Source: Acidobacteriota bacterium
Lineage (GTDB): Bacteria; Acidobacteriota; UBA6911; JACQSX01
Direction: 5' to 3'
Assembly (NCBI GenBank): GCA_036505615.1
Contig: DASXTB010000111.1
Location: 1-60,342 of the forward strand
Length of the DNA: 60,342 nucleotides
This document shows, one piece after another, positions 2,970-60,311 of the stretch. Under the pieces are notes generated by a model, which was not told the origin of the DNA, searched no databases, and saw only the letters and a list, made by a program, of their open reading frames with translations. Position 1 is the first letter of the stretch; every line of letters begins with the position of its first letter. The translations under genes were made by a program, and so were the position numbers.

Positions 2970-3263
2970 ATGTTAACTCACATCGTCTTGTACAAGCCAA
3001 AGCCGGGCGTCGCAAGAGAGCAGATCGAAGTACTCTTGCGCGAGGCGCGGACGCGGCTTCGCCAAGTACCGGGCGTGGCCAACCTCAAGGCAGGAACCTC
3101 AATTTATAAGGAAGACCCTTATCAATGCGCTCTAGTAATGTACTTTGAAGATATTGCCGCGCTGGATCGATATCGCGTACATCCGGTTCATGTAAAGTTT
3201 GTCGAGGAAGTCGTCAACCCGGTAGTCGACGAAGTGCGACGATTGGATTACGTCGAAGAATAG
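2970..3263 (+). CDS. Dabb-family stress-responsive alpha/beta-barrel protein
   Basis: 97-aa ORF; the full length fits the Dabb pattern (THIVLYKPKPG ... YRVHPVHVKFVEE). Confidence 0.8.
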   Translation: MLTHIVLYKPKPGVAREQIEVLLREARTRLRQVPGVANLKAGTSIYKEDPYQCALVMYFEDIAALDRYRVHPVHVKFVEEVVNPVVDEVRRLDYVEE

Positions 3264-3270
3264 AAAAGAG

Positions 3271-3373
3271 GTCGTAAGTCGCAGGTCGAAAATCGAAAGT
3301 CAGGGGTCGCTCGGCCGAGGGCGAGCAAGGCTCGAAGGGTTGCACTTTCGACTTTCGACCTGCGACTTGCGAG
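3271..3373. repeat. tandem-heptamer hairpin (GTCGNAR)n
   Basis: Arms 3271-3304 and 3341-3373 are about 90 percent complementary; 36-nt spacer. Confidence 0.9.
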
Positions 3374-3394
3374 CTGAGACTAGGACAATCAGCC

Positions 3395-18269: not shown

Positions 18270-18398
18270 CGATCACGTTCACGTTCACGAGCACGTCAAC
18301 GTCCACGACTACGACCAATCGAATCGTGAGCGATTGTGTATTCTTCGTCCGCGTAGGCATGGACGTGCTCGTGAACGTGGTCGTGATCGGCTTTTATT
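18270..18398 (+). terminator. long repeat-hairpin followed by U-tract (putative intrinsic terminator of the ligase gene)
   Basis: Arms 18270-18316 and 18356-18390 are complementary (CACGTT-type hexamer arrays). They are followed directly by CTTTTATT. Confidence 0.45.
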
Positions 18399-18461: not shown

Positions 18462-19940
18462 ATGATAGGACGTAGAAGTTTCTTGCAGAAATCGGCTTTA
18501 ACTCTGGGGGCCGTGGCGATGGAGAAATGGCCTCTTGCCACTGCTCAAAAATCCTCTGCCATGATCGGCATCCAAGTGGGAGCCATTTCGTTCCTAGACG
18601 AGGGCACCGGCAGGGTGCTGGATGGCTTTCAGGAAATGGCGGGAGTCAACACACTGTTCCTTGCGACATTCACTTACGGAAGAGGCATCGCCGGACGACA
18701 GCCTCGCCCCAATCCGCTTCCCGATCATGGCAAGCAGGAATACGACGACCAATTTCACGGAGGAAATTTCGCTACTCCGCATCCGCAATATTACCGCAAT
18801 ACCAGCATCCAGCCGGAGAAAGCGCCCGATCATCCCAACTACGACGTCATCGCCGACGTGCTGCCCGAGGCGCATCGCCGCGGGATGAAGGTGATCTGCT
18901 GGTTCGAGGATGTCTTTCGCAAGGATGTTGCCGGGGTAGACCAAGCCGTCGAGATCGATCTGCACGGCAAGCCGACGACACGCACCTGCATGCGCAACCG
19001 CAACGCGCGGAACTTCTGGCTTGGCCTGGCGGAGGATTATCTCCGTTCCTATGACATCGACGGCTTGATGTGGGGAAGCGAGCGGCAGGGACCGCTGAAT
19101 AATGCTCTGGGCTCAAGCCACGGGGGTGGAGCAAATCCGGCCAACGTGGGGTGTTTTTGCAATTACTGCCAGGAAGCCGCGCGTGAAGAAGGCATTAATG
19201 TTGATCGCGCGCGTCAGGGATATCTTGCGCTGGAGCGGTGGATCTCTGAAATGAAGAATGGCAGGCGTCCCACCGATGGCGCTTTCGTCACTTTCTGGCG
19301 CATTCTGGTGACTCATCCGGAAGTACTGGCGTGGGAGCGACTATGGAATAACGGCCTGCAGGATACTTATCGCGCGATGTACCAGCACGCGCGCTCCATC
19401 AAACCGGCAACACCGGTTGGCTGGCACGTCTGGCACAACAACTCCTTTTCGCCGTTGTATCGAGCAGAACAGGACTATAAGGAGTTCAGTAAATATTCGG
19501 ATTACCTGAAAGTCGTCATGTACAACAACTGCGGCGGTCCACGCATGGCTCAGTACGTTCGAAACGTCAATTCTACACTGTTTGCTGATTTAACACCTGA
19601 GCAGGCACTGGAATTTATCTATAGCGTGCAGCAGTACCCCAATGAAAAACGCCTGGGTCAAATCGCTCACGATGGACTGAGCGCCGACTATGTGCTTCGC
19701 GAAACACGTCGAGCTGTCGCGGGCGTCAATCCAAATGTGAAAATCTGGCCGGGAATTGACATTGATATTCCAACGGGCGCGAACGAAAAGAAGACGCAAC
19801 CAGATGACGTGTACCAAGCGGTGAAAGCAGCTTTTGCAGGGGGCGCGCAGGGAGTGATTCTATCGCGCAAGTATTCGGAGATGAAACTTGCCAACCTTCG
19901 AGCCGCCGGCCGTGCCGTGCGGGAGCTGAAACTGGCGTGA
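18462..19940 (+). CDS. Tat-signal hypothetical protein (possibly glycosidase-like TIM barrel)
   Basis: GGAGGA RBS, ATG 18462, twin-arginine signal GRRSFLQKSALTLGAV; 492 aa. No family recognised with confidence. Confidence 0.6.
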   Translation: MIGRRSFLQKSALTLGAVAMEKWPLATAQKSSAMIGIQVGAISFLDEGTGRVLDGFQEMAGVNTLFLATFTYGRGIAGRQPRPNPLPDHGKQEYDDQFHGGNFATPHPQYYRNTSIQPEKAPDHPNYDVIADVLPEAHRRGMKVICWFEDVFRKDVAGVDQAVEIDLHGKPTTRTCMRNRNARNFWLGLAEDYLRSYDIDGLMWGSERQGPLNNALGSSHGGGANPANVGCFCNYCQEAAREEGINVDRARQGYLALERWISEMKNGRRPTDGAFVTFWRILVTHPEVLAWERLWNNGLQDTYRAMYQHARSIKPATPVGWHVWHNNSFSPLYRAEQDYKEFSKYSDYLKVVMYNNCGGPRMAQYVRNVNSTLFADLTPEQALEFIYSVQQYPNEKRLGQIAHDGLSADYVLRETRRAVAGVNPNVKIWPGIDIDIPTGANEKKTQPDDVYQAVKAAFAGGAQGVILSRKYSEMKLANLRAAGRAVRELKLA

Positions 19941-19950
19941 GAAAGCTGAA

Positions 19951-19985
19951 GGGAGAAGGGAGAAGGGAGAAGGGAGAAGGGAGAA
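19951..19985. repeat. (GGGAGAA)5 perfect heptamer array
   Basis: 35 nt of exact GGGAGAA repeats, starting 11 nt after the stop at 19940. G3N4 pattern. Confidence 0.95.
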
Positions 19986-20007
19986 AGCGGAAGGCAGACA
20001 ACTGGTA

Positions 20008-20047
20008 GCTGGCTGAGAGCTTAGAGCCGAGAGCTGAGAGCTGAGCA
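20008..20047. repeat. (GCTGAGA)-type heptamer array
   Basis: GCTGGCTGAGAGCTTAGAGCCGAGAGCTGAGAGCTGAGCA. Not complementary to the neighbouring GGGAGAA array. Confidence 0.9.
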
Positions 20048-23992: not shown

Positions 23993-24005
23993 GAATTGCG
24001 TTCTC

Positions 24006-24294
24006 AGTCACACGTCAGCAAGTCAACAAGTCGCAAGTCAACAGGTTAGCAGGTTACAAGTTAGCAGGTTAGCAGGTTGGTAAGTCGAAGCTCGAAATGA
24101 TCTCCTCAAAGCTGAGTAAGCCCTTGCTTCTCGGCATCGCGAGGAGGAATTCTATCATGCTTAAACCCCGGACTATCAGGCGGAAGTGATGATGTGAAGG
24201 GTTACCTATACTGCCAAGTTTGCCAACTTGCGGAGCTGGAACCTGCCAACCTGCAACCTGTAAACCTATAAACTGGCAAACCCACAAACCTGCA
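24006..24294. repeat. tandem 7-8 nt repeat hairpin (GCAGGTTA / AAGTCAAC units)
   Basis: Left arm 24006-24092 and right arm 24211-24294 (AACCTGC-type units); ~120-nt spacer; imperfect complementarity. Confidence 0.8.
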
Positions 24295-24305
24295 GAAGGT
24301 TCGGG

Positions 24306-24659: not shown

Positions 24660-24667
24660 AAAGGAAG

Positions 24668-25027
24668 TTTCGGGTTTCGGGTGCCGGGTGTCGAGTGCCG
24701 GGTGTCGGGTGCCGGGTGTCGGGTGTCGGGTTTCGGGTGCCGGGTGTCGGGTGTCGGGTATTGGGTGTCGGGTATTCGGTTTTGGGCTTAACGCCCTTCA
24801 GGTTATCCTAAACTTGGAACCCAACACGTGATTCAGCACCCAATACCTAAGACCCAATACCTAAGACCCAATACCCGACACCCGACACCCGGCACCCGAC
24901 ACCCGGCACCCGAAACCCGACACCCGACACCCGGCACCCGACACCCGACACCCGACACCCGGCACCCGAAACCCGAAACCCGACACCCGACACCCGACAC
25001 CCAACACCCGGCACTCGAGACCAATAC
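24668..25027. repeat. tandem-heptamer hairpin (GGGTGTC/GGGTGCC)n / (GACACCC/GGCACCC)n
   Basis: About 17 heptads at 24668-24786, a ~50-nt spacer, then about 27 complementary heptads at 24837-25027. It fills the whole gap between two minus-strand genes. Confidence 0.95.
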
Positions 25028-35182: not shown

Positions 35183-35345
35183 TTCTCCTCCATGATCCGG
35201 AAATTCTAGCAGATTGGCCGCCAATTCCTCCCGACAGCTTTCAATCAAATCTAATTCCCTGCGGACTTTCGATGTCGCGCCTTCGGCGCTTTATATTTTT
35301 AGGTTAACCCTCACTTCCGCCCTGACGGGCGGGCCTACCCAATGA

Positions 35346-35470
35346 CGCCGCTCCGCGGCTCTCGGGTTTGGACATTTTGGAGAGACGGCCTGAGGGCCGT
35401 CTCCCGCGCAATCTTTCATCGTGCAGGAGACGCCCCACGGGGCGTCTCTCCAGTAGCGCCCGGTCCGCGG
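35346..35470 (-). repeat. family A copy 4 (inverted orientation)
   Basis: The reverse complement matches copies 1-3 along about 105 nt. Confidence 0.9.
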
Positions 35471-35517
35471 CTGCGATGCATGGCAACGTATACGCGCGAC
35501 GCAAGATGTAAATACTC

Positions 35518-35555
35518 CTTGTATATTTATGCATTTTCGTGCATAAATATGCATC
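35518..35555 (+). promoter_or_regulatory. candidate tandem ARG boxes (ArgR/AhrC-type operator) overlapping the argC start region
   Basis: TGTATATTTATGCA (35520-35533) and TGCATAAATATGCA (35540-35553) are 14-bp imperfect palindromes of the TGNAT-W4-ATNCA type. They are 13/14 identical as inverted copies, lie 20 bp centre to centre, and end 5 nt before the argC ATG. Confidence 0.5.
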
Positions 35556-35557
35556 TT

Positions 35558-36667
35558 ATGGTTCACGAACTGCGGGCGGCCGTGATAGGCGCGACCGGCT
35601 ATTCCGGAAGGGAACTAGTGCGATGGCTGCAACAACATCCTGTGGCGAAGCCCGTCTTGCTCACCGGTTCCAGGAAAGCTTTGCCGGAGTTGCGCCGCTT
35701 TGTCTGCTCTCTTCCGGCCGATGTGTTTGTCCCGTTTCGGTACGGCGAGAATTTCCTTGAGGAGTTGCTGGATGTCGTCGCCCTCAGGAAGGTGGGCGTG
35801 GTGTTTCTGGCCACTGAGATTGAAAGTGCCGTGGGATTGGCACCCGAGCTCCTGCAGCAGGATGTGGTGGTGATCGATCTCAGTGCCGGCTTTCGTATAA
35901 AAAACGAGAAGCTCTACCGCGAATGGTATTCGCTGGTGCATCCGTGTCCCGAACTCCTGGAGCGAGCCGTCTATGGCCTGTCGGAATACCATCGGGAAGC
36001 AATCACCGCCGCCTCGCTGATTGCAAATCCGGGGTGTTACCCTACATCGGTTCTGCTGGCGTTGTTGCCGGCGCTCGAATTCATCGACTGGGAAGCGCCA
36101 GTGATTTGCGACAGCAAGTCCGGCCTGACCGGCGCGGGCCGGAACGCCGATTATATATTCGCCGAAATCAACGAAAACTGTCTGGCGTACAAACTGGGAA
36201 ATCATCGCCATATCCCGGAAATGCTTCAGGGCCTGGGCAAACCCGTGGGAGATGGAATTCCGTTCGTGTTCGCGCCGCATCTGGTTCCGATGAATCGGGG
36301 AATCCTCAGCACTTGTTATTTCCGCGCAAAAGTCGGCGTAAGCGAAGCCGGTTTGCGCCGGCAATATGAAGAGAAATACAAAGGGTCTCCCTTCGTCACG
36401 TTGCTGGCGCCGGGTGTGTTGCCCCAGGTTCAAATGGTGGCACATACCAATCGTTGTGAAATGGCGTTGTTTGTCCATGGCGATTCGCGCATGATGACGG
36501 TGGTTTCGGCTATCGACAACTTGGTAAAGGGAGCCGCCGGTCAGGCGATACAGAATATGAATATAAGGTTTGGGCTGGACGAGGCGGCCGGACTCACGGG
36601 AACGGCACTCGGTGGCCGGCAAGAGGGAGAAGGCAGAAAGCAGAAGGCAGAAAGCAGACGGCAGTAG
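35558..36667 (+). CDS. argC: N-acetyl-gamma-glutamyl-phosphate reductase
   Basis: [14 protein letters not shown], active-site [24 protein letters not shown] 35558; ORF-track codons upstream are REP-derived. The last ~15 codons and the stop lie inside a tandem-repeat array. Confidence 0.9.
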
Positions 36668-37025
36668 GAAGAAGGCAGGAGCCAGGAGGCAGGAGGCAGG
36701 AAGCAGGAGGCAGGAGGCAGAAGGCAGGAAGCAGGAGGCAGGAAGCAGGGTGCAGAAGGCAGAAGGCAGAAGGCCAGAGGGAGAAGGGAGAAGGCAGGCG
36801 CTAGAGATACTAAGTAGGATGCAATGGCCGGAACGCATAGTGGAAAGTGGCAGACAGGAACCGGAAAGCAAACTGCAAGATGTAACGCCCACAAACAGCT
36901 TCCTGCCTCCTGCTTCGTGCCTCCCGCCTTCTGCCTCCCGCCTCCTGTTTCCTGCCTCCTGCTTTCTGCCTCCTGCTTCCTGCCTCCTGCCTTCTGCCTC
37001 CTGCCTTCCGCTTTCTGCCTTCTCT
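36621..37025. repeat. tandem-heptamer hairpin (GGCAGGA/GGCAGAA/AGCAGGA)n / (TCCTGCC/TTCTGCC)n
   Basis: Left arm 36621-36800 (about 25 heptads), 96-nt spacer, right arm 36897-37025 (about 18 heptads). The argC stop (36665-36667) lies inside the left arm. The argB ATG is 11 nt after the right arm. Confidence 0.95.
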
Positions 37026-40201: not shown

Positions 40202-41590
40202 GTGAACAGTTCTGTGTCTCTACCTCCTTGGAGAAATTGCCCCGGCGGCATCTGCGCGGCTCGAGGCTTCCTGGCCGCCGCTGAGCGCGCGGGTCTCAAG
40301 AAAGCCGGCCTCGATCTGACTATCATTGTCTCTGACCGGCCGGCCAGCGCCGCTGCCTGCTTTACGCGCAACCGCTGCGCGGCGGCGCCCGTCACGGTGA
40401 GCCGTGAACATTTGAAAAAAAACAAAGGCCGCGCTCGGGCGATTCTCGCCAATTCGGGCTGTGCCAATGCAGCCACGGGAGAACGGGGCCTGCAGGATAC
40501 CCGCTCCACCGTCGATGCGCTGGCAAGGAGCCTGGACCTGCCCCCATCCTCTATTTTGGTCTGCTCTACCGGGGTTATCGGTCTGCCGCTGCAGGCCGAC
40601 AGAATCATCGCAAAGCTTCCGGTCTGTGTCAGTCGCCTCAGCCGCAAACAGGCGAGGCGAGCGGCGCAGGCCATCGCGACAACAGATAGCGTCCTTAAGA
40701 TTGAATCTATCGCGTTTCAAGCCGCCAGCGGAGCGGTACGCGTTGGCGGCATTGCAAAGGGCGCCGGGATGATCCATCCGGACATGGCCACAATGTTGGC
40801 GTTCATCACAACCGACGCGGCGATATCACCGGCAATGCTGCAGCGGTGTCTGACCTGGTGCGTGGAGCGGTCGTTTAACTGCATCACCGTCGACGGCGAT
40901 ACTTCGACTAATGATACCGTCATCTTGCTTGCCAACGGCGCCTCTGGGGTTGAGGTTATGGAGGAACCAGCCAGCGGGCGGATAGACTCGCGGACACGGA
41001 GACACGGAGACACGGGGGCCATCGTCGCATCGCCGCGTCCCCGCGTCCCCGCGTCGCGACACTCCCTGTCGCCGCGTTCCCTTATCCCCGCGTCGAAGCC
41101 TGCCGTGTCGTCTCACCTCCAAGACCAGGTATGCGAGGACGACTTCCGCGCTGCTCTGCTGGAAGTCTGTCAGAGGCTGGCGCGAAAGATCGCGTGGGAC
41201 GGCGAAGGAGCGACCCATCAACTGGAAATCCGGGTTACCGGCGCTAGGTCTTTCGAGCAGGCAAGGAATGTCGGCCGTTCCATCGGCCGTTCGAATCTGG
41301 TCAAGACAGCCATTTACGGGCATGATCCCAATTGGGGACGGGTATTGAGCGCCGCGGGCGCGTCCGGTGAGCGCATTGACAGTTCGCGTGTCCAACTGGC
41401 GATCGATGGCCAAGTCGTAGCCGAAGGAGGAGTCTTAAAATACCTGCCTGATTCGGTTTTCACTTCGGTGTGGAAGAAGAAAAAAATTGAAATTGCGATC
41501 GATCTTGGCCTGCGTGACGCCAACGCCACCTGTTGGAGCTGCGACCTGTCGCACCAGTACGTCGATATCAACGCGAGCTACCGAACATGA
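40202..41590 (+). CDS. argJ: bifunctional glutamate N-acetyltransferase / ornithine acetyltransferase
   Basis: GMIHPDMATMLAFITTDA (self-cleavage site), DGDTSTND, DGEGATH, CDLSHQYVDINASYRT. Contains a repeat-derived in-frame insertion (see findings). Confidence 0.9.
   Translation: MNSSVSLPPWRNCPGGICAARGFLAAAERAGLKKAGLDLTIIVSDRPASAAACFTRNRCAAAPVTVSREHLKKNKGRARAILANSGCANAATGERGLQDTRSTVDALARSLDLPPSSILVCSTGVIGLPLQADRIIAKLPVCVSRLSRKQARRAAQAIATTDSVLKIESIAFQAASGAVRVGGIAKGAGMIHPDMATMLAFITTDAAISPAMLQRCLTWCVERSFNCITVDGDTSTNDTVILLANGASGVEVMEEPASGRIDSRTRRHGDTGAIVASPRPRVPASRHSLSPRSLIPASKPAVSSHLQDQVCEDDFRAALLEVCQRLARKIAWDGEGATHQLEIRVTGARSFEQARNVGRSIGRSNLVKTAIYGHDPNWGRVLSAAGASGERIDSSRVQLAIDGQVVAEGGVLKYLPDSVFTSVWKKKKIEIAIDLGLRDANATCWSCDLSHQYVDINASYRT
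40985..41116. repeat. 8-nt repeat arrays (GACACGGA)3 ... (CCCGCGTC)3 inside the argJ ORF
   Basis: CGGACACGGAGACACGGAGACACGGGGG at 40990-41018 and CGCGTCCCCGCGTCCCCGCGTCGCGAC at 41034-41060, plus CCCCGCGTC and CCGTGTCGTCTC further on. Partially complementary arms. Confidence 0.8.
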
Positions 41591-43464: not shown

Positions 43465-43599
43465 GCTGCCAGTTCTCAGCTTTCAGCCAAGAAGCCCAGA
43501 ATCAAGCCCCTGGAGACGAATCTCATTGATAGGGCTGATGGTTGATGGCTGACATCTGATGGCCGAGAGCTGATGGCTGACAGCTGAGAGCTGAGAGCT
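43465..43599. repeat. heptamer hairpin with unequal arms (GCTGAGA/GCTGATG units)
   Basis: Short arm GCTGCCAGTTCTCAGCTTTCAGCC (43465-43488) is complementary to the long array at 43532-43599. That array abuts the ferredoxin stop. Confidence 0.75.
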
Positions 43600-45206: not shown

Positions 45207-45623
45207 CTAGAGTCGGTACAGCATCCAATATACGATAACGCCGGTGACGGAAACATACATCCAGAGTGGAAAAGTCCAGCGAGCGATTTTCTTGTGCTTT
45301 TGAAAATCTCCCCTGAGAGCTCGGCTTACGGTAATTAGTGCCAGCGGAACAATTATCACAGCCAGAAGCGTGTGGCTGAAGAGAATAGACAGATAAACGG
45401 AGCGAATCACGCCGGACTTCTGGAAATGCTTGGAACCGGCGTAATAGTGATAGGTCAGGTAGGAAATTAGAAAGAGCGTTGAAGAACAAAAAGCTGATCC
45501 CATGAGGAAACGGTGCGCGCTGATTTTCCCACTGCGGATGCAAAAGTAGCCCACGGCCAGAAGAATGGCGCTACTGGCGTTGAGGATGGCATTCACCGTC
45601 GGCAGGTTTTGAATCGGTATCAT
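45207..45623 (-). CDS. DUF420-family membrane protein (cytochrome-oxidase-associated family)
   Basis: 138 aa, four TM helices, DUF420-like sequence (NAILNASSAILL..G...I......HR..M). Located directly downstream of ctaA-ctaB. Confidence 0.8.
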   Translation of the reverse strand: MIPIQNLPTVNAILNASSAILLAVGYFCIRSGKISAHRFLMGSAFCSSTLFLISYLTYHYYAGSKHFQKSGVIRSVYLSILFSHTLLAVIIVPLALITVSRALRGDFQKHKKIARWTFPLWMYVSVTGVIVYWMLYRL

Positions 45624-45629
45624 ATTGAG

Positions 45630-46249
45630 TGTCAGTTGTTGGGTGTCGGGTATCGGGTGTCAGGTGACGGGTGTTGGGTGTTGGGTGTCGGGTGTCGGGT
45701 GTCGGGTCGAGTGTCGGGTGACGGGTATCGGGTGTCGGGTGACGGGTATCGGGTGTTGGGTGTCGGGTGTCGGGTATCGGGTGTCAGGTATCGGGTGTCG
45801 GGTGACAGGTCTCGGGTGTCAGGTATCGGGTGTCGGGTGTCAGGTAAGGGGTGACGGGTGTCAGGTGTCAGGTTTCGGGTGTCGGATGCATCAGTCACCG
45901 AAAAGACTCATATCAACAGATTGAAAGATGTTTGCCCAACACCCGTCACCCGATACCCGATACCCGTCACCCAACACCCGTCACCCGATACCCGTCACCC
46001 GACACCCGATACCCGTCACCCGTCACCCAACACCCGTCACCCGTCACCCAACACCCAACACCCAACACCCGTCACCCGATACCCGTCACCCGTCACCCGA
46101 CACCCGATACCCGTCACCCGTCACCCGTCACCCAACACCCGTCACCCGTCACCCAACACCCAACACCCAACACCCAACACCCAACACCCAACACCCGTCA
46201 CCCAACACCCAACACCCAACACCCAACACCTGACACCCAACACCCAACG
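45630..46249. repeat. giant tandem-heptamer hairpin (GGGTGTC family), about 36 + 45 units
   Basis: G-rich arm 45630-45885, ~50-nt spacer, C-rich arm 45935-46248. It occupies the entire ctaB-DUF420 intergenic gap. Confidence 0.95.
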
Positions 46250-46254
46250 TCAGT

Positions 46255-47172
46255 TCATGCCTTGTCCACGACCATTAAAACCAGCAGCAGCGGCAGATAA
46301 ACGACGGAAGCCTTCAGCAATTTGCGCGCGTCTCCTGTAGTGCGTGATTGGGCTACTCGGAAGCCATAAAAGACGAAAAGCGAACCGAGCAGTAGAGCTC
46401 CCGACACGTACACCAAACCTGTCAATCCCAATGCCGACGGCAACAAGCTGATCGGAATAAGTGCCATGGTGTAAATCAGGATCTGTTGTCCGGTAACGAA
46501 ACCATCCCGGTCTTCGAGCGGAAGCATGCGAAAACCGCCGCGCTCGTAATCCTCGCGATACATCCAGGCAATGGCGAGAAAATGCGGAAATTGCCATAGA
46601 AACAGAATAAAAAACAGAGACCAGGCCTTCAGGCTCAGTTCTCCAGTCGCCGCCGCCCACCCGATCAGAGGAGGCGTCGCTCCGGGAAATGCGCCAACCA
46701 GCGTGCACAAAGATGTTTTCTGCTTCAAGGGTGTGTAAACAAACAAATAGCTCGCCAGGACCGCAAGGGCGAGAAAACATGCCAGAACGTTGACTAGATA
46801 TGCCAGATAGGCGAGACCTGCTGCTGAAAGAATTATCCCAAAGATCAACGCGCTGGACGGTTCCAGGCGCCGCGCAGGGAGCGGGCGGTTTTCGGTGCGC
46901 CGCATCATCTTGTCCGTGGCTCGCTCCAGAAACTGATTGAGGACGGCGGCGGCACCCGCGGTCAACGCCGTCCCCGTCAACGTATGCAAGAGCAGCCGCA
47001 GGTTCATGGGCCCGCGGGAACCGAGATAAAAGCCAACGACCGTGGTAATCAACACCAGGGTAGTGACGCGCGGCTTGGTCAGCTCAACGTAATCGGCCAA
47101 TTGCAGCCGTCCGATGTCCCAAATGCTGGGGGGCGCGGAAATTATTTGCTCGTTACTAAGTCGTTTTGACAA
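46255..47172 (-). CDS. ctaB: protohaem IX farnesyltransferase (haem O synthase)
   Basis: UbiA-type blocks YVELTKPRV and DKMMRRTENRPLP. TTG start; position uncertain. Confidence 0.9.
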   Translation of the reverse strand: MSKRLSNEQIISAPPSIWDIGRLQLADYVELTKPRVTTLVLITTVVGFYLGSRGPMNLRLLLHTLTGTALTAGAAAVLNQFLERATDKMMRRTENRPLPARRLEPSSALIFGIILSAAGLAYLAYLVNVLACFLALAVLASYLFVYTPLKQKTSLCTLVGAFPGATPPLIGWAAATGELSLKAWSLFFILFLWQFPHFLAIAWMYREDYERGGFRMLPLEDRDGFVTGQQILIYTMALIPISLLPSALGLTGLVYVSGALLLGSLFVFYGFRVAQSRTTGDARKLLKASVVYLPLLLVLMVVDKA

Positions 47173-47240
47173 GTAGATCTCTAGTTAGCGGCCGCCAATG
47201 AATGCGGGTCATAGAGGCGCGGCATCCCGCGTCTCTGGAT

Positions 47241-47550
47241 TTTGGACACTTATGCCTCCGCTGGGCTTGTCCCAGCAGAGCAGAAGATTGTTCACTAAAA
47301 GCGAAAAAACTAGAATTATCGGTCTCCACCGGCCTCGTGCCGGTGGAGACGAAGTTGATCACTATGGTTCGACGCTCCATTTCAAATTGCTGGCGATACT
47401 GCGCGCACTTTCACCAACAGGAGTCTGTGTTAGCAGGCAATCTTGGCTCCGCCGGAACAGGGCCGGCGGAGGCCGCCTTTTACAGACTCTCTGTTAGTGC
47501 ACAATCTCTCGCTCCGCTGGGACCAGCCCAGCGGAGGCGTTGTGTCACCG
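47241..47550. repeat. MITE-like composite with ~55-bp terminal inverted repeats (family E)
   Basis: GGACACTTATGCCTCCGCTGGGCTTGTCCCAGCAGAGCAGAAGATTGTTCACTA (47243-47297) matches the reverse complement of 47495-47550. A third copy lies at 59049-59106. Internal GGTCTCCACCGGC/GCCGGTGGAGAC hairpin. Confidence 0.8.
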
Positions 47551-47595
47551 TTACAGTGTCAGTACCACAGTGACACACAAACGCAATTGGGGGAA

Positions 47596-48588
47596 TTAAG
47601 TAGTCTGTTCCCAATTTCCATGGTCCCCAATTTCCATCATTCGGGTCCATTTGCGGCCAATGTTCGCCCCTGGGTATCGCCTGTGAATTCTCAAAGCGAG
47701 CAACAGTGCAGAGGCCAAAATGAGCGCGCCCAAAGCAACGTGAGCCGTAGAGCTCCAGACGTACTCGAAGATCGGCTGAGGAGCGCGCAAATTCTCCTTC
47801 TTGATAAAGAAGGTTGCCGTCCCCAAGAGTGCCTGGCCCACCACCAGACCCAGCAGAAAGAGCGAATGCCGATTCAGCTCGCCGGGGTAAAACCTTACCG
47901 TTATTACTGCAAGCCGCGCGGCCAACAGTACAACCACGGCAGCCCCGAGGATGTGCGAACCGATCCCCAAAGCATTATGCCGGTAGCCCGCGCCCAGTAT
48001 CAGCTGCGCGTAAACGGCAGCAACCAGGCAAAGGCTGATCCCACGAAGGCTGGGACGGTCTTCGGGATCCGTCTCAGACTGCTGGCCGGCCCACTTGTCG
48101 CCCGTTACCACCGCCGTAGAGATCGTTAGGCAAAAGAATGCCTGAGCCAGCGAAGCGTGGGCCATGGAAACTGCGGGCGGCAGGAAGTACAGTACGGTAA
48201 TTCCGCCCAGCAGCCCCTGTAGGATCACCGTAGCCATCGCCGTCCATCCGAGTCTGCGTACCCATCTGCGGGGCTCCTTCACTGAAATCCAGACTGCCAG
48301 TATGACGGTGAGCATTCCCACGAAAGCAGCAACCATGCGATGGCTATGCTCGTAGAGAACCCCGCCGGGCATCTCAGGCAACCATTTACCGAAGGAAAGC
48401 GGCCAATCTGGAACTGCAAGTCCGGCATCGTTGCTGGTCACAAGGCCCCCGGCGATGATCAAAAAGAAAGTGCAGACCGCGGTGAAGCAGGCGAAGCGGT
48501 GTAACGATTTCGGATTGCGGATTTCGGATTGCGGATTATTCGATTTCGGATTGCGGATTTCGGATTGCGGATTAAGTCGTGAAGGCAT
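47596..48588 (-). CDS. ctaA: haem A synthase (COX15/CtaA family)
   Basis: Eight-TM COX15/CtaA-type ORF (YEHSHRMVAAFVG, GAGYRHNALG). ATG 48588 (or TTG 48603). The first ~30 codons are the repeat arm (NPQSEIRNPKS twice). Confidence 0.85.
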   Translation of the reverse strand: MPSRLNPQSEIRNPKSNNPQSEIRNPKSLHRFACFTAVCTFFLIIAGGLVTSNDAGLAVPDWPLSFGKWLPEMPGGVLYEHSHRMVAAFVGMLTVILAVWISVKEPRRWVRRLGWTAMATVILQGLLGGITVLYFLPPAVSMAHASLAQAFFCLTISTAVVTGDKWAGQQSETDPEDRPSLRGISLCLVAAVYAQLILGAGYRHNALGIGSHILGAAVVVLLAARLAVITVRFYPGELNRHSLFLLGLVVGQALLGTATFFIKKENLRAPQPIFEYVWSSTAHVALGALILASALLLALRIHRRYPGANIGRKWTRMMEIGDHGNWEQTT

Positions 48589-48743
48589 TTGATTTGCTCT
48601 CAATTTCCATCTCCACTCGAACCGAACTTAAAGGAAGCTAGGCTAAAGTCCACAATCGATCAATCCGAAATCCGAAATCCGCAATCCGCAATTGGGCTAT
48701 CCGCAATCCGAAATCCGCAATTGGGCAATCCGCAATCCGAAAT
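48505..48743. repeat. tandem 7-8 nt repeat hairpin (CGGATTG/CGGATTT)n / (AATCCGC/AATCCGA)n
   Basis: Left arm 48505-48574 (inside the ctaA 5' end), ~80-nt spacer, right arm 48657-48743 (ends 4 nt before the cupredoxin stop). Confidence 0.9.
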
Positions 48744-48747
48744 GGAT

Positions 48748-49530
48748 CTACTTTCCGCTGAAGCTAAAATCGACTGTCTTCGCTTCCTTGGCAGCCACTG
48801 TCACCTTCTGTTCCATCTTATTGTATTTTTCGTGCCAGGCGGCGACGGTGTAGGAGCCCGGAGGCAGTCCCTTTATCTCAAACGTACCGTCCTTGCCGGT
48901 GACGGCGAAAAATGGATTCTTCACCACACCGATATACGCCTTCATCCAGGGATGAATATTGCACTTGACGGGAATCAGAAGCTCTTCGCGGGCAAAAGTC
49001 TTGGTCTTCTTGGGAGCCCCTGGCCCTTGGACCTCATTCCATTCCGGGTTGTTTTTGGGCATGGGATGAATGTTGTGGTTGGTGTTGTCGCTGCTCACTA
49101 TATCAAGGGGCTGTCCTGTCATTACTCCCAGCACGTGAGGTTCGTAACGGCAACCCTTCTGATCCAGTGTCGCCGGCTGCGTCGAAGCTTCGAAGCTCCG
49201 GTCCCCCAGTCCTTCCTCGACCCAAACGAAGACGTTGGCCAGAGTCCCGTTGTCATTTACCACGACGTCCTCGGTTTCGATGGAACCGCCTGGATGCTGG
49301 GCGGCGCAGTACTTGTCCTGTTCCATGCGGATTTTCTTCGGTGCCGGCTTGGCGCCGGTGAAATTTACTTTTCCAGAGACTGTAGCCGCGGTGGATGCGT
49401 CAATGGCGGCCGCCGGTTTTGCCGGCCCCGTCGCTGGTGCAGCTGTCTCAGAACTAGGCGCTTCTTCTTTTCTGCCGCAGGCGAATGCGAGCGCTGCAAC
49501 CAACAGTAAGGCATAAACAGAATGTTTCAT
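48748..49530 (-). CDS. cupredoxin-like lipoprotein with C-terminal CarboxypepD_reg/Ig-like domain
   Basis: Lipobox (LAFACG). Amicyanin-type copper loop CNIHPWM (C-x2-H-x2-M) with upstream His (NHNIHPM). C-terminal GKDGTFEIKGLPPGSYTV. Confidence 0.65.
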   Translation of the reverse strand: MKHSVYALLLVAALAFACGRKEEAPSSETAAPATGPAKPAAAIDASTAATVSGKVNFTGAKPAPKKIRMEQDKYCAAQHPGGSIETEDVVVNDNGTLANVFVWVEEGLGDRSFEASTQPATLDQKGCRYEPHVLGVMTGQPLDIVSSDNTNHNIHPMPKNNPEWNEVQGPGAPKKTKTFAREELLIPVKCNIHPWMKAYIGVVKNPFFAVTGKDGTFEIKGLPPGSYTVAAWHEKYNKMEQKVTVAAKEAKTVDFSFSGK

Positions 49531-49643: not shown

Positions 49644-49982
49644 GAGTTGCCGGTTTCTGGTCCCCAGTTGCCAGTTCCTAGTTGCCAGTCGCCTGTAATT
49701 TTGAAATCGGAACTACGGATCCATGATCTCACTGCAGAGGCGCAGAACCTGTAAAAGAATCAGAACCGCGCCCGTCAGGGCGCGTGCGGAGAATCTTTGT
49801 CAATTCCCGGCGCCTGCAAAACGCTTTGAACTGCCAGCAACTTAGAAAGTTTACGGCGAATCTTGTTACATTCTCCGCGCGCGCCCTGACGGGCGCGGTT
49901 CTGATTCTTGCTGTGGTTCTGCGGTGAATCGTACTACCGATTGCAAAGTTACAGGCAACTAGGAACTGGAAACTGGCAACTG
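49644..49982. repeat. nested double palindrome
   Basis: Outer arms 49644-49703 and 49944-49982 (CAGTTGC/CAGTTCC units). Inner inverted repeat 49742-49803 / 49862-49922 is about 60 nt and highly similar; each copy carries its own GCGCCCGTCAGGGCGC hairpin. Confidence 0.9.
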
Positions 49983-55164: not shown

Positions 55165-55276
55165 TGCAGGTTGCAAAGTTAGCAAGTTAGCAGGTTCGCA
55201 AGTTAACAACTTGGCACGTTAGGGGTCTCTGGCTCGCGGACCTGCTAACTTGTTAACCTGCAAACCTGCAAACAAG
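55165..55276. repeat. tandem 7-8 nt repeat hairpin (GCAGGTT/GCAAGTT units)
   Basis: Arms 55165-55215 and 55240-55276, located between the Rieske stop and the cytochrome b start. Confidence 0.85.
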
Positions 55277-55278
55277 AG

Positions 55279-56175
55279 CTAAGCCGGCAAAAATGCTCCT
55301 GGATCGTGAAACTCCGAACGGCTGCCTTTGGGCCACTGATATAACTTGGCGGTGTCCACTTTAATCTGGCCGTCTGCGTCCAACTCGATCCTCGCCCGAT
55401 CCATGGGACGTGGCGCCGGTCCCTCAAAATTGATCCCTTCGCTGTCGTAGCCGCTTCCGTGACAGGGGCATTTGAACTTGTTTTCGCTTGCGATCCAATC
55501 GGGAGTGCAGCCAAGGTGCGTACAACGCGCATAAATAGCAAAGATCCCTTCAGAGGTGCGCACTACCCAGATGCGATAATCTTTCTGAAACTTGGTATCC
55601 ACGCCAAAACCAAAGTCGGAAGGATATCCAATTTTGAACACAGTCTTTGGCTCGAACAAGACCCTGGGGAAAAAGAAGCGCGCAAACATCACCAGATTCG
55701 TAGCTAGAAAACCGAAGACGCAGGTTACGGCAAATCTCCGCCGCCGCATCAGCCTTGCTTCAGACTCGATTACCTCCGGTCTCTTGGGAATCTCTACAGC
55801 GGGGGCGGGAGGCTTGGCGGCAGCAACCGTTTTGGCGGGAACGGCAGGTGGTGCGGCCGCGGCCGGGCGGGGCGCCACCGGCGCGGGGGAAATAGCGGCG
55901 GGCGTAGCCGGAGTGGCGGAGCCGGGTCTCCCTTTCCACACCTTGGGCTGCTTTCGTGGCTTCTCGCCTGCCGGCGCGCCTTCGGATGCAGGTGTTGCCT
56001 CCGCAACGGCAGGGGTTTCCGAAGCCGCGGGCGCGTCGGCCTGCGCATCGGAGGACGCGGCAGGGGGCGTGGCGGCGACCGGCGCCGGAGGGCCACCGGC
56101 TGCGCGCGGCGGCCACGGTCTCGGTTGTTTTTTTGGTTTGTCCTCAGGCTTTTGCGGAGTATCAGGGTCAGACAT
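55279..56175 (-). CDS. Rieske 2Fe-2S subunit with long Pro/Ala-rich N-terminal extension
   Basis: CTHLGC...CPCHGS Rieske boxes; RRRRF Tat-like motif followed by a TM helix. About 140 aa of low-complexity P/A/E-rich sequence precede this. Confidence 0.9.
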
Positions 56176-56530
56176 ATTTGTTCAAAACCTCACCTTTTCC
56201 TGCGTCAGGAGATTTCGTTGTGACCGAGTCAGTCTTTGTTCGCTTGGAACTGCTTTCATGCAGCGCAAACATTCCACCGACGATTTTTGTGGATTTGGCG
56301 GAGCGGGATCGCGTTTCCTCCCATCGGTGTCCCGATAGGCAAATGGCGGGTGGTCATCATGTCTGAAGATATAAATTCAGCCTGCAGTATCACCTTCGGT
56401 CGATTGCCTCCAGACCTTCGGTGGGTCACACAGATAATTAAGGTGCCCGGCGATCCAACCACTTCTATTCCACATCGTTGCAGTGGATACGGCTTGGTTT
56501 TACTTCTATGACAGCACAAAAGTCAAGATA

Positions 56531-56741
56531 GTCCGTTGTCCGTTGTCAGGTCGCAGGTAGCAAGTCGCAGGTCGAAAGTCGCAAGTCGCAGGTCGAAAGT
56601 CGCAGGTCGAAAGTCGATTGGCTGGCGTTTGAGTGGGAACCCACGAGTGAAATTTGAAAATTGGATTTAGAGCTTCCCACTTTCGACTTTCGACTTTAGA
56701 CCTTCGACTTTCGACCTTCGACTTTCGACCTTCGACTTTCA
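56531..56741. repeat. tandem-heptamer hairpin (GTCGCAG/GTCGAAA)n / (CTTTCGA/CCTTCGA)n
   Basis: Left arm 56531-56616 (starts with GTCCGTT x2), ~60-nt spacer, right arm 56678-56741, ending 12 nt before the stop of the CMD-like gene. Confidence 0.9.
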
Positions 56742-56752
56742 GCCTAGGATCA

Positions 56753-57283
56753 TCAACCCAGATCTGGCACCACTTGCAGCGCGTCGTTGAATCGGTTTGT
56801 GAAATTGGCGACGCAGATTGTCAGCGTCAGTTCCACGATCTGTTCTTCGCTGAAGTGCCTCTTCAGCTCCTCCAATGTCCCCTCACGGATCGCAGCCGCT
56901 CCCCGTGTGACCCGTTCTGCATAGAGGAGCACGGCCTTCTCCTTTTCATCAAACACCTGGCTGCGCTGAGCGAAGGGTATGGCTTTGATCTGTTCGTCGG
57001 TAACGCCGTTCCGCTTCGCCGAAGCGGTATGCGCGCGAGTTCAGTATTCGCAGCCATTGACCGTTGATGTTTTCAGATAAGCCAGTTCTTTGTATTTCGG
57101 CTCGACAGTGCCTTCCGAGATCACCGTCTTATAAAGTGACAGGAAACTCTTGAGTGCCGCTGGCCGGTGGGCCATGACGGCGAAAATGTTGGGCACTCGG
57201 CCGGGCTTCTTAGCCAAGCCATCGTAGATTTCCTTCACCTCCGCGGTGGCTTTTTCTGCTGGAATTGGATTAACAGTTGGCAA
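56753..57283 (-). CDS. carboxymuconolactone-decarboxylase/AhpD-like protein with in-frame TGA (candidate selenocysteine) in the CxxC motif
   Basis: ORFs 57041..57388 and 56753..56956 are in the same frame and are separated only by TGA 57041-57043. Read-through gives ...STVNGCEY-U-TRAHTASAKRNGVTDEQI..., the CMD-family NGCxYCxxxH core. AAGGAGG RBS lies 7 nt before TTG 57283. Confidence 0.7.
57011..57027 (-). promoter_or_regulatory. candidate bacterial SECIS hairpin
   Basis: The mRNA sense reads CCGCUUCGGCGAAGCGG (6-7 bp stem, G-rich apical loop). It starts 13 nt after the in-frame UGA at 57043-57041, placing the loop roughly 20-25 nt from the UGA. Confidence 0.45.
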
Positions 57284-57301
57284 GGCAATGCCTCCTTTGT
57301 T

Positions 57302-57349
57302 TCTCGAATGATGAAAGAAGTCTAGTCTCGAATGATGAAAGAAGTCTAG
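57302..57349. repeat. perfect 24-bp tandem duplication
   Basis: TCTCGAATGATGAAAGAAGTCTAG occurs twice (57302-57325 and 57326-57349), 19-66 nt upstream of the CMD-like gene start. Confidence 0.95.
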
Positions 57350-57418
57350 CGGTCGAGAAACGGGCGCGCAAGGTGAACTAGAACGCAAAGCTCAAAGGGG
57401 TCTCCCCCGGCCTTGGAA

Positions 57419-57541
57419 CGTGTGAAAAATCAATTTGATTGTAGGGGCGGCCCTGCGTCGCCGCCCGGACCCGCGGCCCTTGTTGGAGAACGGACGACCA
57501 GACAGGGTCGCCCGTACAGATGAAATCAATTTTTTCACACG
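57419..57541. repeat. palindromic element, family F (GTGTGAAAAA..TTTTTTCACAC termini)
   Basis: CGTGTGAAAAATCAATTTGATT ... ATGAAATCAATTTTTTCACACG, with an internal GGGGCGGCC..GCCGCCC hairpin. A partial copy lies at 15428-15500. Confidence 0.8.
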
Positions 57542-57730
57542 CTCTTGTGCCGGGGGAACCGAGATTTTTCACCAGAGCGAGGCACACCTGATAAACAGCA
57601 CTCAGCCGGACTTGGCCCGGTGGGGCGCAAGATTTTCGCACGCAATCGGCATGCCCCGACGGGCGGTTCACGAACCGCCCCTACGGAAGAGCGGGTCGGC
57701 CAAACCGGCTTGGGCAACACCCCTCAGCAA

Positions 57731-57859
57731 TGTGTGAAAAAATACTGAGCCGCGCGCGTAGGCAAGCGGACACTCCCACCTGCAAAGCTCGGGCTGTCTT
57801 TAATTGGTTCGATCGCGGGTCCGCTTGCTGACGCGCACGGCTCAGTAGTTTTTTCACAG
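57731..57859. repeat. palindromic element with the same GTGTGAAAAAAT / TTTTTTCACAG termini
   Basis: TGTGTGAAAAAATACTGAGCCGCGCGCGTAGGCAAGCGGAC ... GTCCGCTTGCTGACGCGCACGGCTCAGTAGTTTTTTCACAG. Confidence 0.85.
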
Positions 57860-57895
57860 CTTCTTAGGATCGCGGCTCGGATCTTATGTACGAAT

Positions 57896-58099
57896 CTAGG
57901 AGCGCATCATTTTAAAAAGAGTGCGCAGCAGCAAGAAGCTTACGAAGCCGCCGGCCAGTATAACCGGCACCAATCCCGAGGGGTCTCGGATGGGTCGAAA
58001 TTCCGAACTGCCGTTTTTCAATTCGATATAACCGAGCGGTGAAATCACAATGGCGCCGCCTCTGGAATTTTGACTATCCGTTTCCACCTCGTCAGACAT
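57896..58099 (-). CDS. small hypothetical protein with C-terminal TM helix
   Basis: 67 aa from ATG 58099 (AGGAAGG RBS). Sequence GGAIVISPLGYIELKNG then a hydrophobic tail. Family uncertain. Confidence 0.35.
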   Translation of the reverse strand: MSDEVETDSQNSRGGAIVISPLGYIELKNGSSEFRPIRDPSGLVPVILAGGFVSFLLLRTLFKMMRS

Positions 58100-58367
58100 G
58101 GTGCACCTTCCTTTCCTTTTCCTATGCAAAAGATATTGAACATGCGATCCGCAGAACGTGGGAAAAAATTAGCCCATTAAGGCACAAGGGGCACCAAGCA
58201 AGGAAAACGTTCATTCCTGAGTGCCGTAAGTGCCGGCAAAAGCGGGTTTTCCGCCCGATCGCATAATTTCGCAGTCTACGTGAAACCTTTCAGTGTCTCG
58301 GTTCATCTCACTGGTTGATAAGGTTAAATACCTAAGAAACCCTAAGGAAATCGAGGTACTAATTAAC

Positions 58368-59985: not shown

Positions 59986-60074
59986 GCAGACTAACTCCGA
60001 GCAGACTAACTCCGGAGCAGACTAACTCCGCGTCTCACGTTTGAGCGCGAGCAGACTAACTCCGGACTAACTCC
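59986..60074 (+). repeat. short direct repeats (GCAGACTAACTCCG x4, ACTCCGC.TCTCA)
   Basis: GCAGACTAACTCCG occurs at 59986, 60001, 60017 and 60051. Confidence 0.85.
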
Positions 60075-60311
60075 GCATCTCAACTCCGCATCTCACGTTT
60101 GAGCAGGTAATTTGCCATTTTGACGCTGACTTACCGCTCTGTAGCGGTCGTTTTCGATCTCCCTTTCCCAACAAATTTTACAGTCCCGATCACGCATCTC
60201 AACTCCGCATCTCACGTTTGAGCAGTTAATTTGCCATTTTGACGCTGACTTACCGCTCTGAAGCGGTCGTTTTCGATCTCCCTTTCCCAACAAATTTTAC
60301 AGTCCCGATCA
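60075..60311 (+). repeat. two tandem copies of a 118-nt unit (period 119)
   Basis: 60075-60192 and 60194-60311 differ at two positions. Each copy contains an ACCGCTCTGNAGCGGT hairpin. Confidence 0.95.

Follow-up and report, generated by a model that had tools for sequence, protein, structure and literature searches.

The stretch of DNA analysed here (the window) is positions 1 to 60,342 of contig DASXTB010000111.1, from an Acidobacteriota bacterium (assembly GCA_036505615.1). Its minus strand carries a respiratory gene cluster: a multihaem cytochrome c gene, a 260-aa lipoprotein-like gene, the haem A synthase gene ctaA, the haem O synthase gene ctaB directly downstream of ctaA, and a DUF420 gene (Table 1). 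At the 5′ end of ctaA lie two inverted arrays of a heptanucleotide repeat, able to form a long hairpin, and one arm of this hairpin falls inside the ctaA open reading frame (ORF). An earlier note on this DNA had pointed out the arrays and claimed that one arm is translated as the N-terminus of CtaA, and that the ribosome-binding region and start codon of ctaA would be sequestered in the hairpin, which might serve as a translational control point. Comparison with relatives makes the first of these claims very probable; the second is not supported, given the position of the start codons and the folding calculations.

The two arrays were found by TRF at 48505-48574 and 48661-48743. Since ctaA lies on the minus strand, the ‘left arm’ of the earlier note is the 3′ arm in the mRNA and its ‘right arm’ the 5′ arm; in what follows the arms are named in the mRNA sense. 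The best inverted pair (48514-48573 with 48662-48721) is 60 nt long and 88% complementary, with 88 nt between the arms, and gives an imperfect stem of ∼60 bp. Minus-strand RNA from 48755 to 48495 folds at −114.3 kcal/mol, against −71.6 ± 4.8 kcal/mol for dinucleotide shuffles (z = −9.0), of which none in 200 reaches the native energy. The repeat unit is not a pure (CGGATTG)n: CGGATTG and CGGATTT alternate on the plus strand, so that the unit of the 3′ arm reads AATCCGC/AATCCGA in the mRNA. No phase of the unit contains a stop codon. The 3′ arm has a period of 7/14 and also a period of 36 (1.9 copies at 100% by TRF, lag-36 identity 1.0), each 36-nt block consisting of four heptamers and one 8-mer. 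The dominant lags of the 5′ arm are 29/65, no clean multiple of 3. As described before, a gap of 4 nt (ATCC) separates the stop of the upstream gene (TAG, 48750-48748) from the end of the 5′ arm at 48743. An intrinsic terminator was considered and rejected: the stem is followed by CGUUACACCGC, with no U-tract, and a terminator scan gave no site at the hairpin. A promoter scan found no sigma-70-like promoter in the loop, and no Rfam covariance model matched at its gathering score anywhere in the window.

From its family match and predicted fold, the ctaA product is a putative haem A synthase. The Pfam model COX15-CtaA matches with 105.5 bits (cut-off 29.9, E = 3.6e-30), and an AlphaFold model (pLDDT 87) has eight long helices at residues 31-57, 82-109, 113-138, 143-166, 186-208, 214-238, 242-270 and 279-309. 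Six histidines (H86, H88, H149, H209, H217 and H288) are invariant in 41 CtaA homologues, in which H35 is the first nearly invariant residue; this histidine belongs to the LHRF motif that opens the first transmembrane helix (TM1). Upstream of LHRF in frame, the first stop codon is a TAA at −126, and between it and TM1 the sole ATG, GTG or TTG codons are TTG 48603 (−99) and ATG 48588 (−84), both of which lie in the hairpin loop. The in-frame codon scan thus bears out the earlier statements that the only canonical ctaA starts precede the 3′ arm and that none occurs between the array and the first helix, and translation yields the N-terminal peptide given there, MPSRLNPQSEIRNPKSNNPQSEIRNPKS. The next canonical codons fall inside TM1, part of the eight-helix core, and a functional CtaA therefore requires either a loop start or a non-canonical one. 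Residues 1-30 of the model are coil with pLDDT ∼55, giving way to helix from residue 31 at pLDDT 96-98. The tail has six Lys and Arg residues against two Asp and Glu, and a net positive tail fits a cytoplasmic N-terminus given the CtaA topology.

Relatives were compared through 120 listed homologues and the contigs on which the closest of them lie. Among these 120, repeat-encoded CtaA N-termini occur only in the two closest, P0002 (77% identity, on contig L001) and P0003 (69% identity, on contig L002); the close homologues are labelled Acidobacteriota in their source records. The N-terminus of P0002 is MSMSKNPQSTIRNLQSRIPHSEFSIPHSGIPHSEFRIPHS-LHRF and that of P0003 is MQLKDQPGAGGQLNPQSEIRNPKLENPQSEIRNPQSRNSQSEIRNPKLENSQSEIRNPQL-LHFF, and gene callers run both proteins through the array. 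Both contigs share the layout of the window: the upstream stop, a 5′ arm 0-3 nt further on, a loop of ∼80-90 nt that holds the start, the 3′ arm and then TTACA(C/T). Peptide and repeat DNA accordingly occur together in both orthologues. The N-tails of the other 117 homologues are non-conserved and unrelated (median 10 aa, maximum 52). Non-conserved and modelled as coil, the CtaA tail looks dispensable and floppy. At the more distant syntenic loci L009, L011 and L012 the operons are compact, with ctaA and ctaB overlapping. At all three the ctaA ORF is free of arrays; L011 and L012 lack arrays altogether, and L009 has plain non-repeat palindromes upstream of ctaA. Because the distant relatives are compact and have no array in the ctaA ORF, the arrays appear to be derived and to have been passed down vertically within a small clade. 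Protein scans of genome and metagenome contigs returned only matches to the repeat peptide and no further ctaA orthologues.

The three orthologues differ in instructive ways. In L001 the unit AATCCGM has become ATTCCGM, turning NPQSEIR into IPHSEFR, and the 5′ arm has changed with it, such that the arms are still complementary; the 7-mers of the L001 3′ arm are 45% common with its own 5′ arm and 12-14% with the 5′ arms of the other species. It is not the peptide itself, then, that has been preserved. The loop sequences of the three are no more alike than shuffled sequences, while the flanking codons are 77-90% identical. The junction codon between array and conserved sequence is TTA, rare at 4% of Leu codons, in all three orthologues, and CTT or CTG in relatives that have no array. 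At the foot of the stem, UUAC could form base pairs with GUAG or GUGA around the upstream stop codon (window 48502-48504 with 48747-48751). We do not rely on TTA conservation as a sign of a special start or of stop-codon pairing, neighbouring synonymous sites being largely conserved too.

Three lines of comparison make it likely that the 3′ arm is translated. First, 3′ arms in all three genomes have a dominant period of 36/72 nt, 36 nt being 12 codons, with 2, 3 and 4 twelve-residue copies; lag-36 identities are 1.00, 0.78 and 0.89-0.91, and L002 has in addition a 72-nt period at 0.93-0.96. The window, L001 and L002 were checked for heptamer arrays of 40 nt or more, 29 in all, and every one other than these 3′ arms has a multiple of 7 as its best higher-order lag; the ctaA 5′ arms of the three genomes have lags of 29/65, 21 and 23/30. 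The smallest near-multiple of the heptamer unit that preserves the frame is 36 nt. Elsewhere, intergenic heptamer sets differ between strains in 7-nt steps (PMC4679880). Second, in each of the three genomes the ctaA frame can be opened by a start ahead of the array and meets no stop on the way, as against one in six alternative frames, two of which hold a TAA within the array. Third, the window and L002, but not L001, have a Shine-Dalgarno (SD)-like motif in front of the loop start; the L002 start is a GTG with AAGGAG 5 nt before it. With the shared layout, these observations lend support to the proposal of a translated arm, and no canonical start lies downstream of the array in the window or L001.

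The reading that we prefer, with a probability of about 0.6, is that the hairpin is a tolerated inverted repeat generated by slippage, whose 3′ arm makes a disordered CtaA tail, with the start in the loop and any effect on expression acting via the stem. The hairpin would be one of a lineage-specific series of long intercistronic hairpins, its two arrays filling the space from the upstream stop to the first constrained ctaA codon. Translation would start in the loop, at TTG 48603 or ATG 48588, and then read the 3′ arm, adding a positively charged, disordered cytoplasmic tail of 28-33 residues before TM1. Such an arm would be tolerated because the CtaA N-tail is unconstrained, and the frame kept because the unit has no stops and the arm changes length solely in 36-nt blocks. 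We infer that replication slippage, together with intrastrand switching of the template from one arm to the other, most likely gave rise to the arrays and keeps them alike; this would account for both L001 arms changing unit together. Stem formation and translation of codons 11-33 would be mutually exclusive: ribosomes loaded in the loop would have to unwind or pre-empt the ∼60-bp stem, and on untranslated RNA the stem would form right after the upstream stop, where it could protect the 3′ end of the upstream cistron. Arrays would in general expand until they reach constrained sequence, mostly a start region; at ctaA the conserved codons would set the boundary, since the sequence that encodes the tail may vary freely if the start stays in frame.

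Several observations weigh against this reading. The L001 start is ATG ATG with no SD sequence, and the arms of L002 are so unequal (47 versus 144 nt) that much of its array is unpairable. The ctaA hairpin folds almost equally well as sense and antisense RNA (−112.6 versus −113.9 kcal/mol), and nothing in these values points to RNA rather than DNA mattering. In-frame ATC codons stand at −18 and −54 within the window array, and L002 has in-frame TTG codons at −3 (just before LHFF), −39 and −111; given these codons, internal initiation is possible. The comparison covers only three independent lineages, and part of the 36-nt period may be inherited and not recurrent. Finally, the locus was not found in the RNA runs searched, and the DNA runs contain just 6-8% of sampled words.

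The alternative that survives best makes the hairpin a selected RNA device. The stem would form when ctaA is untranslated and be cut as double-stranded RNA (dsRNA) by an RNase III-like activity; the cut would sever the start from the ORF and leave a protective stem upstream, such that the output of ctaA would depend on its own translation and no longer follow the upstream genes, as may be compared with hmw1A (below). We hold this unlikely, if well short of negligible. The architecture is kept over 69-77% aa identity with co-varying arms, every spacer of the operon has a long hairpin, repeat-based or not, and the palindromes of L009 occupy the corresponding position; for several neighbouring hairpins the sense RNA is the more stable one and is much richer in G-U pairs, and RNase III does act on a heptamer-repeat hairpin elsewhere (PMC12721329). 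Set against this are the want of sense-strand bias in the ctaA hairpin itself, a stem length that is not conserved (the 47-nt 5′ arm of L002), a non-conserved loop, the compact spacers of related genomes and the failure to find the locus in the RNA runs searched. The G-U bias of the neighbours could moreover stem from transcription-associated C-to-T mutation.

A wider form of the idea is that the lineage has a system of locus-specific, concertedly evolving hairpins, made of heptamer arrays or simple palindromes, that punctuate operons at the RNA level, processing or stabilising cistrons, and that at ctaA one of these has been pushed into the ORF, where one strand of the dsRNA would be the first 24 codons and message survival would depend on translation; this we consider unlikely. 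A similar case is that of the repetitive extragenic palindrome (REP) and bacterial interspersed mosaic element (BIME) hairpins of enterobacterial operons, for example malE-malF, where a stable hairpin follows the upstream stop and is expected to protect the mRNA before it and to let cistron levels differ. REPs, however, are short dispersed palindromes of one family, and they neither form tandem arrays nor reach into the downstream ORF.

It is also conceivable, and in our judgement improbable, that the array is untranslated: CtaA would start at a non-canonical or internal codon in the array or at its 3′ end (a TTG in L002, ATC/ATT in the other two genomes), the transcript perhaps having been processed, and the extension would be an annotation artefact. 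A stop-free heptamer, open in all three phases, makes an ORF extension automatic; the L002 TTG stands one codon before LHFF; the homologues P0054, P0051 and P0007 start 0-2 residues before LHR; and at other loci of the window a mere 5-15 nt separate the end of the 3′ arm from the start of the following gene, often without SD sequence. Yet the window and L001 have no ATG, GTG or TTG from array to TM1, the candidate internal codons lie inside the stem with no SD sequence, and two of the three genomes do have one before the loop start. The 36-nt period specific to this arm, and the frame statistics, would go unexplained.

That the hairpin pairs the ctaA ribosome-binding region and start, and so gates initiation as a translational operator, is very unlikely. 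The hairpin is very stable, the ATG is only 14 nt from the stem, so that a 30S subunit at initiation would reach the stem top with its 3′ edge, and there is some local pairing in the loop, where the mean unpaired probability around the starts is ∼0.45-0.5. But the GGAG (48614-48611) and both starts all lie in the 88-nt apical loop, outside the stem, which begins 29 nt downstream of the TTG and 14 nt downstream of the ATG; in an operator that sequesters the ribosome-binding site (RBS), SD sequence or start would be base-paired in the stem. In an ensemble calculation, opening the region from −15 to +12 costs 9.8 kcal/mol at the TTG and 6.6 at the ATG in the native RNA. Shuffling the 5′ arm gives 12.0-12.7 and 5.9-6.1, and leaving it out 12.0 and 6.2. 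The opening energies of L001 and L002 are likewise independent of the 5′ arm, and lie at 6-12 kcal/mol overall. Neither SD sequence nor start-codon identity is conserved, and that the loop sequences of the three species are unlike each other speaks against a conserved operator. Masking of the RBS or start by the hairpin, as the earlier note had it, is not supported; regulation via the stem itself, as an elongation barrier or dsRNA target, is conceivable. Programmed frameshifting was also considered, and dropped as there is no slippery site.

A contingency locus, in which slippage of 7 or 14 nt in the coding arm would shift the ctaA frame and make haem A synthesis phase-variable, is hardly credible: although the unit at the ORF 5′ end is non-triplet and any single-unit change shifts the frame, all three lineages (a small sample) are in frame, array lengths are identical in independent samples (the window versus L003, and P0003 versus P0121), the array is imperfect with alternating units and interruptions, and ctaA is a housekeeping respiratory gene. 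Copy number is hard to follow in metagenomic data. When soil-metagenome contigs are mapped to the locus, the arrays draw thousands-fold depth from hundreds of unrelated contigs; contigs of a ∼92%-identical relative end in the array, where copy-number variation is unreadable, and assemblies hide rare variants.

Table 1. Features of the ctaA hairpin, its neighbourhood and the other arrays of the window (positions in the window unless a contig is named)
Feature	Position	Strand	Remarks
5′ arm of hairpin	48661..48743	-	(GCGGAUU/UCGGAUU)n with CCCAAUUG interruptions; untranslated; TRF periods 7, 29, 36; inverted repeat
Apical loop, ∼88 nt	48575..48660	-	ctaA ribosome-binding region and both candidate starts; own small local stems in folds
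3′ arm, inside ctaA ORF	48505..48574	-	two 36-nt blocks; encodes NPQSEIRNPKSN / NPQSEIRNPKS(L), residues 11-33 in TTG numbering
TTA CAC, L34-H35 of LHRF opening TM1	48499..48504	-	first conserved codons; abut array end 48505
Shine-Dalgarno-like GGAG	48611..48614	-	from sequence; 7 nt upstream of TTG 48603
TTG, first in-frame canonical start	48601..48603	-	335-aa product
ATG, second in-frame start	48586..48588	-	330-aa product; start of public gene call P0001
ctaA, predicted haem A synthase, COX15/CtaA family	47596..48603	-	Pfam PF02628; 6985 homologues; eight long helices
ctaA-ctaB spacer hairpin	47173..47595	-	423 nt, no tandem repeats; −205 kcal/mol, z = −9.9
ctaB	47172..46255	-	TIGR01473, 3e-87
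ctaB-DUF420 spacer hairpin	45629..46245	-	inverted (GTGTCGG)37 / (CCCGACA)44; arms 257 and 311 nt
DUF420 gene	45623..45207	-	
Lipoprotein-like gene, 260 aa	49530..48748	-	possible cupredoxin-like domain and CarboxypepD_reg domain; stop TAG 48750-48748
Multihaem cytochrome c, 1072 aa	53203..49985	-	
Inverted 7-/8-nt arrays, first set	340-413, 1972-2069, 2766-2966, 3340-3381, 18273-18386, 19939-20045, 24006-24294		
Inverted 7-/8-nt arrays, second set	24670-25022, 36624-37023, 43533-43599, 45629-46245, 49645-49982, 55166-55273, 56531-56740		
TTA junction / stop region in relatives	L001 ∼2935-2938, ∼3252-3255; L002 ∼5899-5902, ∼6181-6184		

The ctaA hairpin has many counterparts in the contig. TRF finds ∼15 array pairs in the window, which differ from one another in their 7- or 8-nt unit and mostly stand between co-directional genes. 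At such spacers the upstream stop is typically followed by the 5′ arm within 2-13 nt, the 3′ arm comes to within 5-15 nt of the start codon after it, and the downstream gene often has no SD sequence. The unit of the ctaB-DUF420 spacer, GTGTCGG, is found at the orthologous L001 spacer as well. This hairpin folds at −511 kcal/mol as sense and −447 as antisense RNA, with 28 versus 4 G-U pairs. Sense-stable hairpins with several-fold more sense G-U pairs are found at window 45625-46250, 24665-25026 and 24000-24300 and at L001 5430-5690; the test for this sense-strand signature is positive for some neighbours and negative for the ctaA hairpin. Selection on the RNA could lie behind the excess, or else a bias towards C-to-T mutation that goes with transcription. 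In contig L003, otherwise 99.9% identical, ∼567 nt of the ctaB-DUF420 hairpin are missing (window ∼45652-46218; L003 3172-3174), whether through a true deletion or because the assembly collapsed there.

Arrays also appear to be read elsewhere in the window. An ArgJ-like ORF at 40202-41590, with the ATML self-cleavage motif, holds the in-frame 8-nt arrays (GGAGACAC)3 and (CGCGTCCC)3 at 40984-41057, which appear to encode a low-complexity insertion of ∼50 residues, a second possible translated array. The C-terminus of the ORF at 35342-36667 enters an (AGGCAGA)n array by 44 nt (36624-36667), from which arrays appear to be read at gene 3′ ends too. Towards the end of the contig are a perfect 24-nt × 2 repeat (57302-57349) and a 119-nt tandem duplication (two copies, 98%; 60074-60311), and there is no convincing ORF in 55274-58292.

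Of the neighbouring genes, the 260-aa gene is a conserved partner of ctaA and ctaB in the clade. The earlier note had called it a cupredoxin gene, a label that is weakly supported. A profile of six orthologues gives weak PDB matches over the full length of the domain, to a type-1 copper protein (5fc9, E = 0.09) and to amicyanin (1sfd, E = 0.64), and the residues H152/H155...C190-x2-H193-x2-M196 (C-x2-H-x2-M) are invariant; Pfam sees only a C-terminal CarboxypepD_reg domain. A single-sequence AlphaFold model of this protein was unusable (pLDDT 35), and the profile search of PDB sequences was used in its place. Upstream of the 260-aa gene, L001 has a DDE transposase gene (69-1820) in place of the multihaem cytochrome c gene.

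Over-represented intergenic heptamer repeats are known in bacteria: GGGAATC in Xanthomonas, where 70-75 convergent pairs are able to form stem-loops, and GGGGA(T/C)T in Nostoc/Anabaena (Rehm et al. 2015, PMC4692102). These, with which we group the cyanobacterial short tandemly repeated repetitive (STRR) heptamers, are the closest known type. Like the arrays described here they are 7-nt tandem arrays, mostly intergenic between co-directional genes and near an ORF end, whose positions are kept between related species while length and sequence vary (PMC4692102). At ctaA two 7-nt tandem arrays of opposite orientation lie close together, as in a pair of the Xanthomonas/Nostoc type, and the unit GCGGATT/TCGGATT is one base from Nostoc GGGGATT. 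The ctaA locus is unlike that type in having its 3′ arm inside the only viable ctaA ORF, apparently translated and with a frame-keeping 36-nt period. Further, each spacer of the contig has its own unit, where Xanthomonas and Nostoc have a genome-wide one, and the ctaA unit contains at most GG and no run of three or more G, to which the G-quadruplex idea put forward for G-rich units is inapplicable. Heptamers of the GCGGATT type (AATCCSC/GSGGATT) also form inverted pairs in a Planctomycetales metagenome-assembled genome (L004 2800-3190, L005 2960-3200), and arrays of them occur in the hot-spring metagenome contigs L006-L008 (Ga0308411/Ga0308396/Ga0308397), all of these being unrelated to the window; contigs from soil metagenomes are exceedingly rich in them.

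In Haemophilus influenzae, an (ATCTTTC)n hairpin in the 5′ untranslated region (5′-UTR) of hmw1A is cut by RNase III and controls hmw1A at the post-transcriptional level (Rapun-Araiz et al. 2025, PMC12721329). There, as by prediction at ctaA, a heptamer array at the 5′ end of a gene forms an arm of a long RNA hairpin. The hmw1A repeat lies wholly in the 5′-UTR, its other arm is a non-repeat G-rich sequence, its copy number is phase-variable and its cleavage by RNase III has been demonstrated; at ctaA, in contrast, both arms are arrays, the 3′ arm is coding and no copy-number polymorphism was seen (two samples from each of two lineages). TAACTGA and other heptamer direct repeats stand just upstream of starts in Beggiatoaceae, Cyanobacteria and Bacteroidetes (MacGregor 2015, PMC4679880). 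They resemble the arrays of the window in ending a few nt from starts with no SD sequence, and are occasionally found inside ORFs, translated as 7-residue repeats; they differ in being direct, with one genome-wide unit that has forward stops, only one inverted case being found, and in not being hairpin arms. Tandem repeats in the ORFs of Borg elements give low-complexity disordered peptides (PMC9879509). Those repeats are direct and belong to extrachromosomal elements of archaea, and the abstract of that source does not present them as arms of hairpins, whereas the ctaA array has a 7-nt base and only its 36-nt super-unit is triplet.

Inverted intergenic heptamer repeats, SD-less starts abutted by arrays, and a heptamer hairpin cut by RNase III were thus already known. 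New here are a coding arm with a 12-codon super-period in three species, and the pattern of one unit per spacer.

If the arm is translated, ctaA would be a natural case of a non-triplet repeat in a conserved housekeeping ORF whose frame is kept by a 12-codon super-repeat, and the same sequence would serve as hairpin arm and as protein tail. Gene callers and N-terminal annotation can be misled, or seem wrong, at such loci, and assemblers break or collapse there. In nearly every co-directional spacer of the contig there is a long hairpin with its own unit, and units are kept across species; it is this wider pattern that is likelier to inform us about mRNA processing, and about how such arrays are generated and homogenised.

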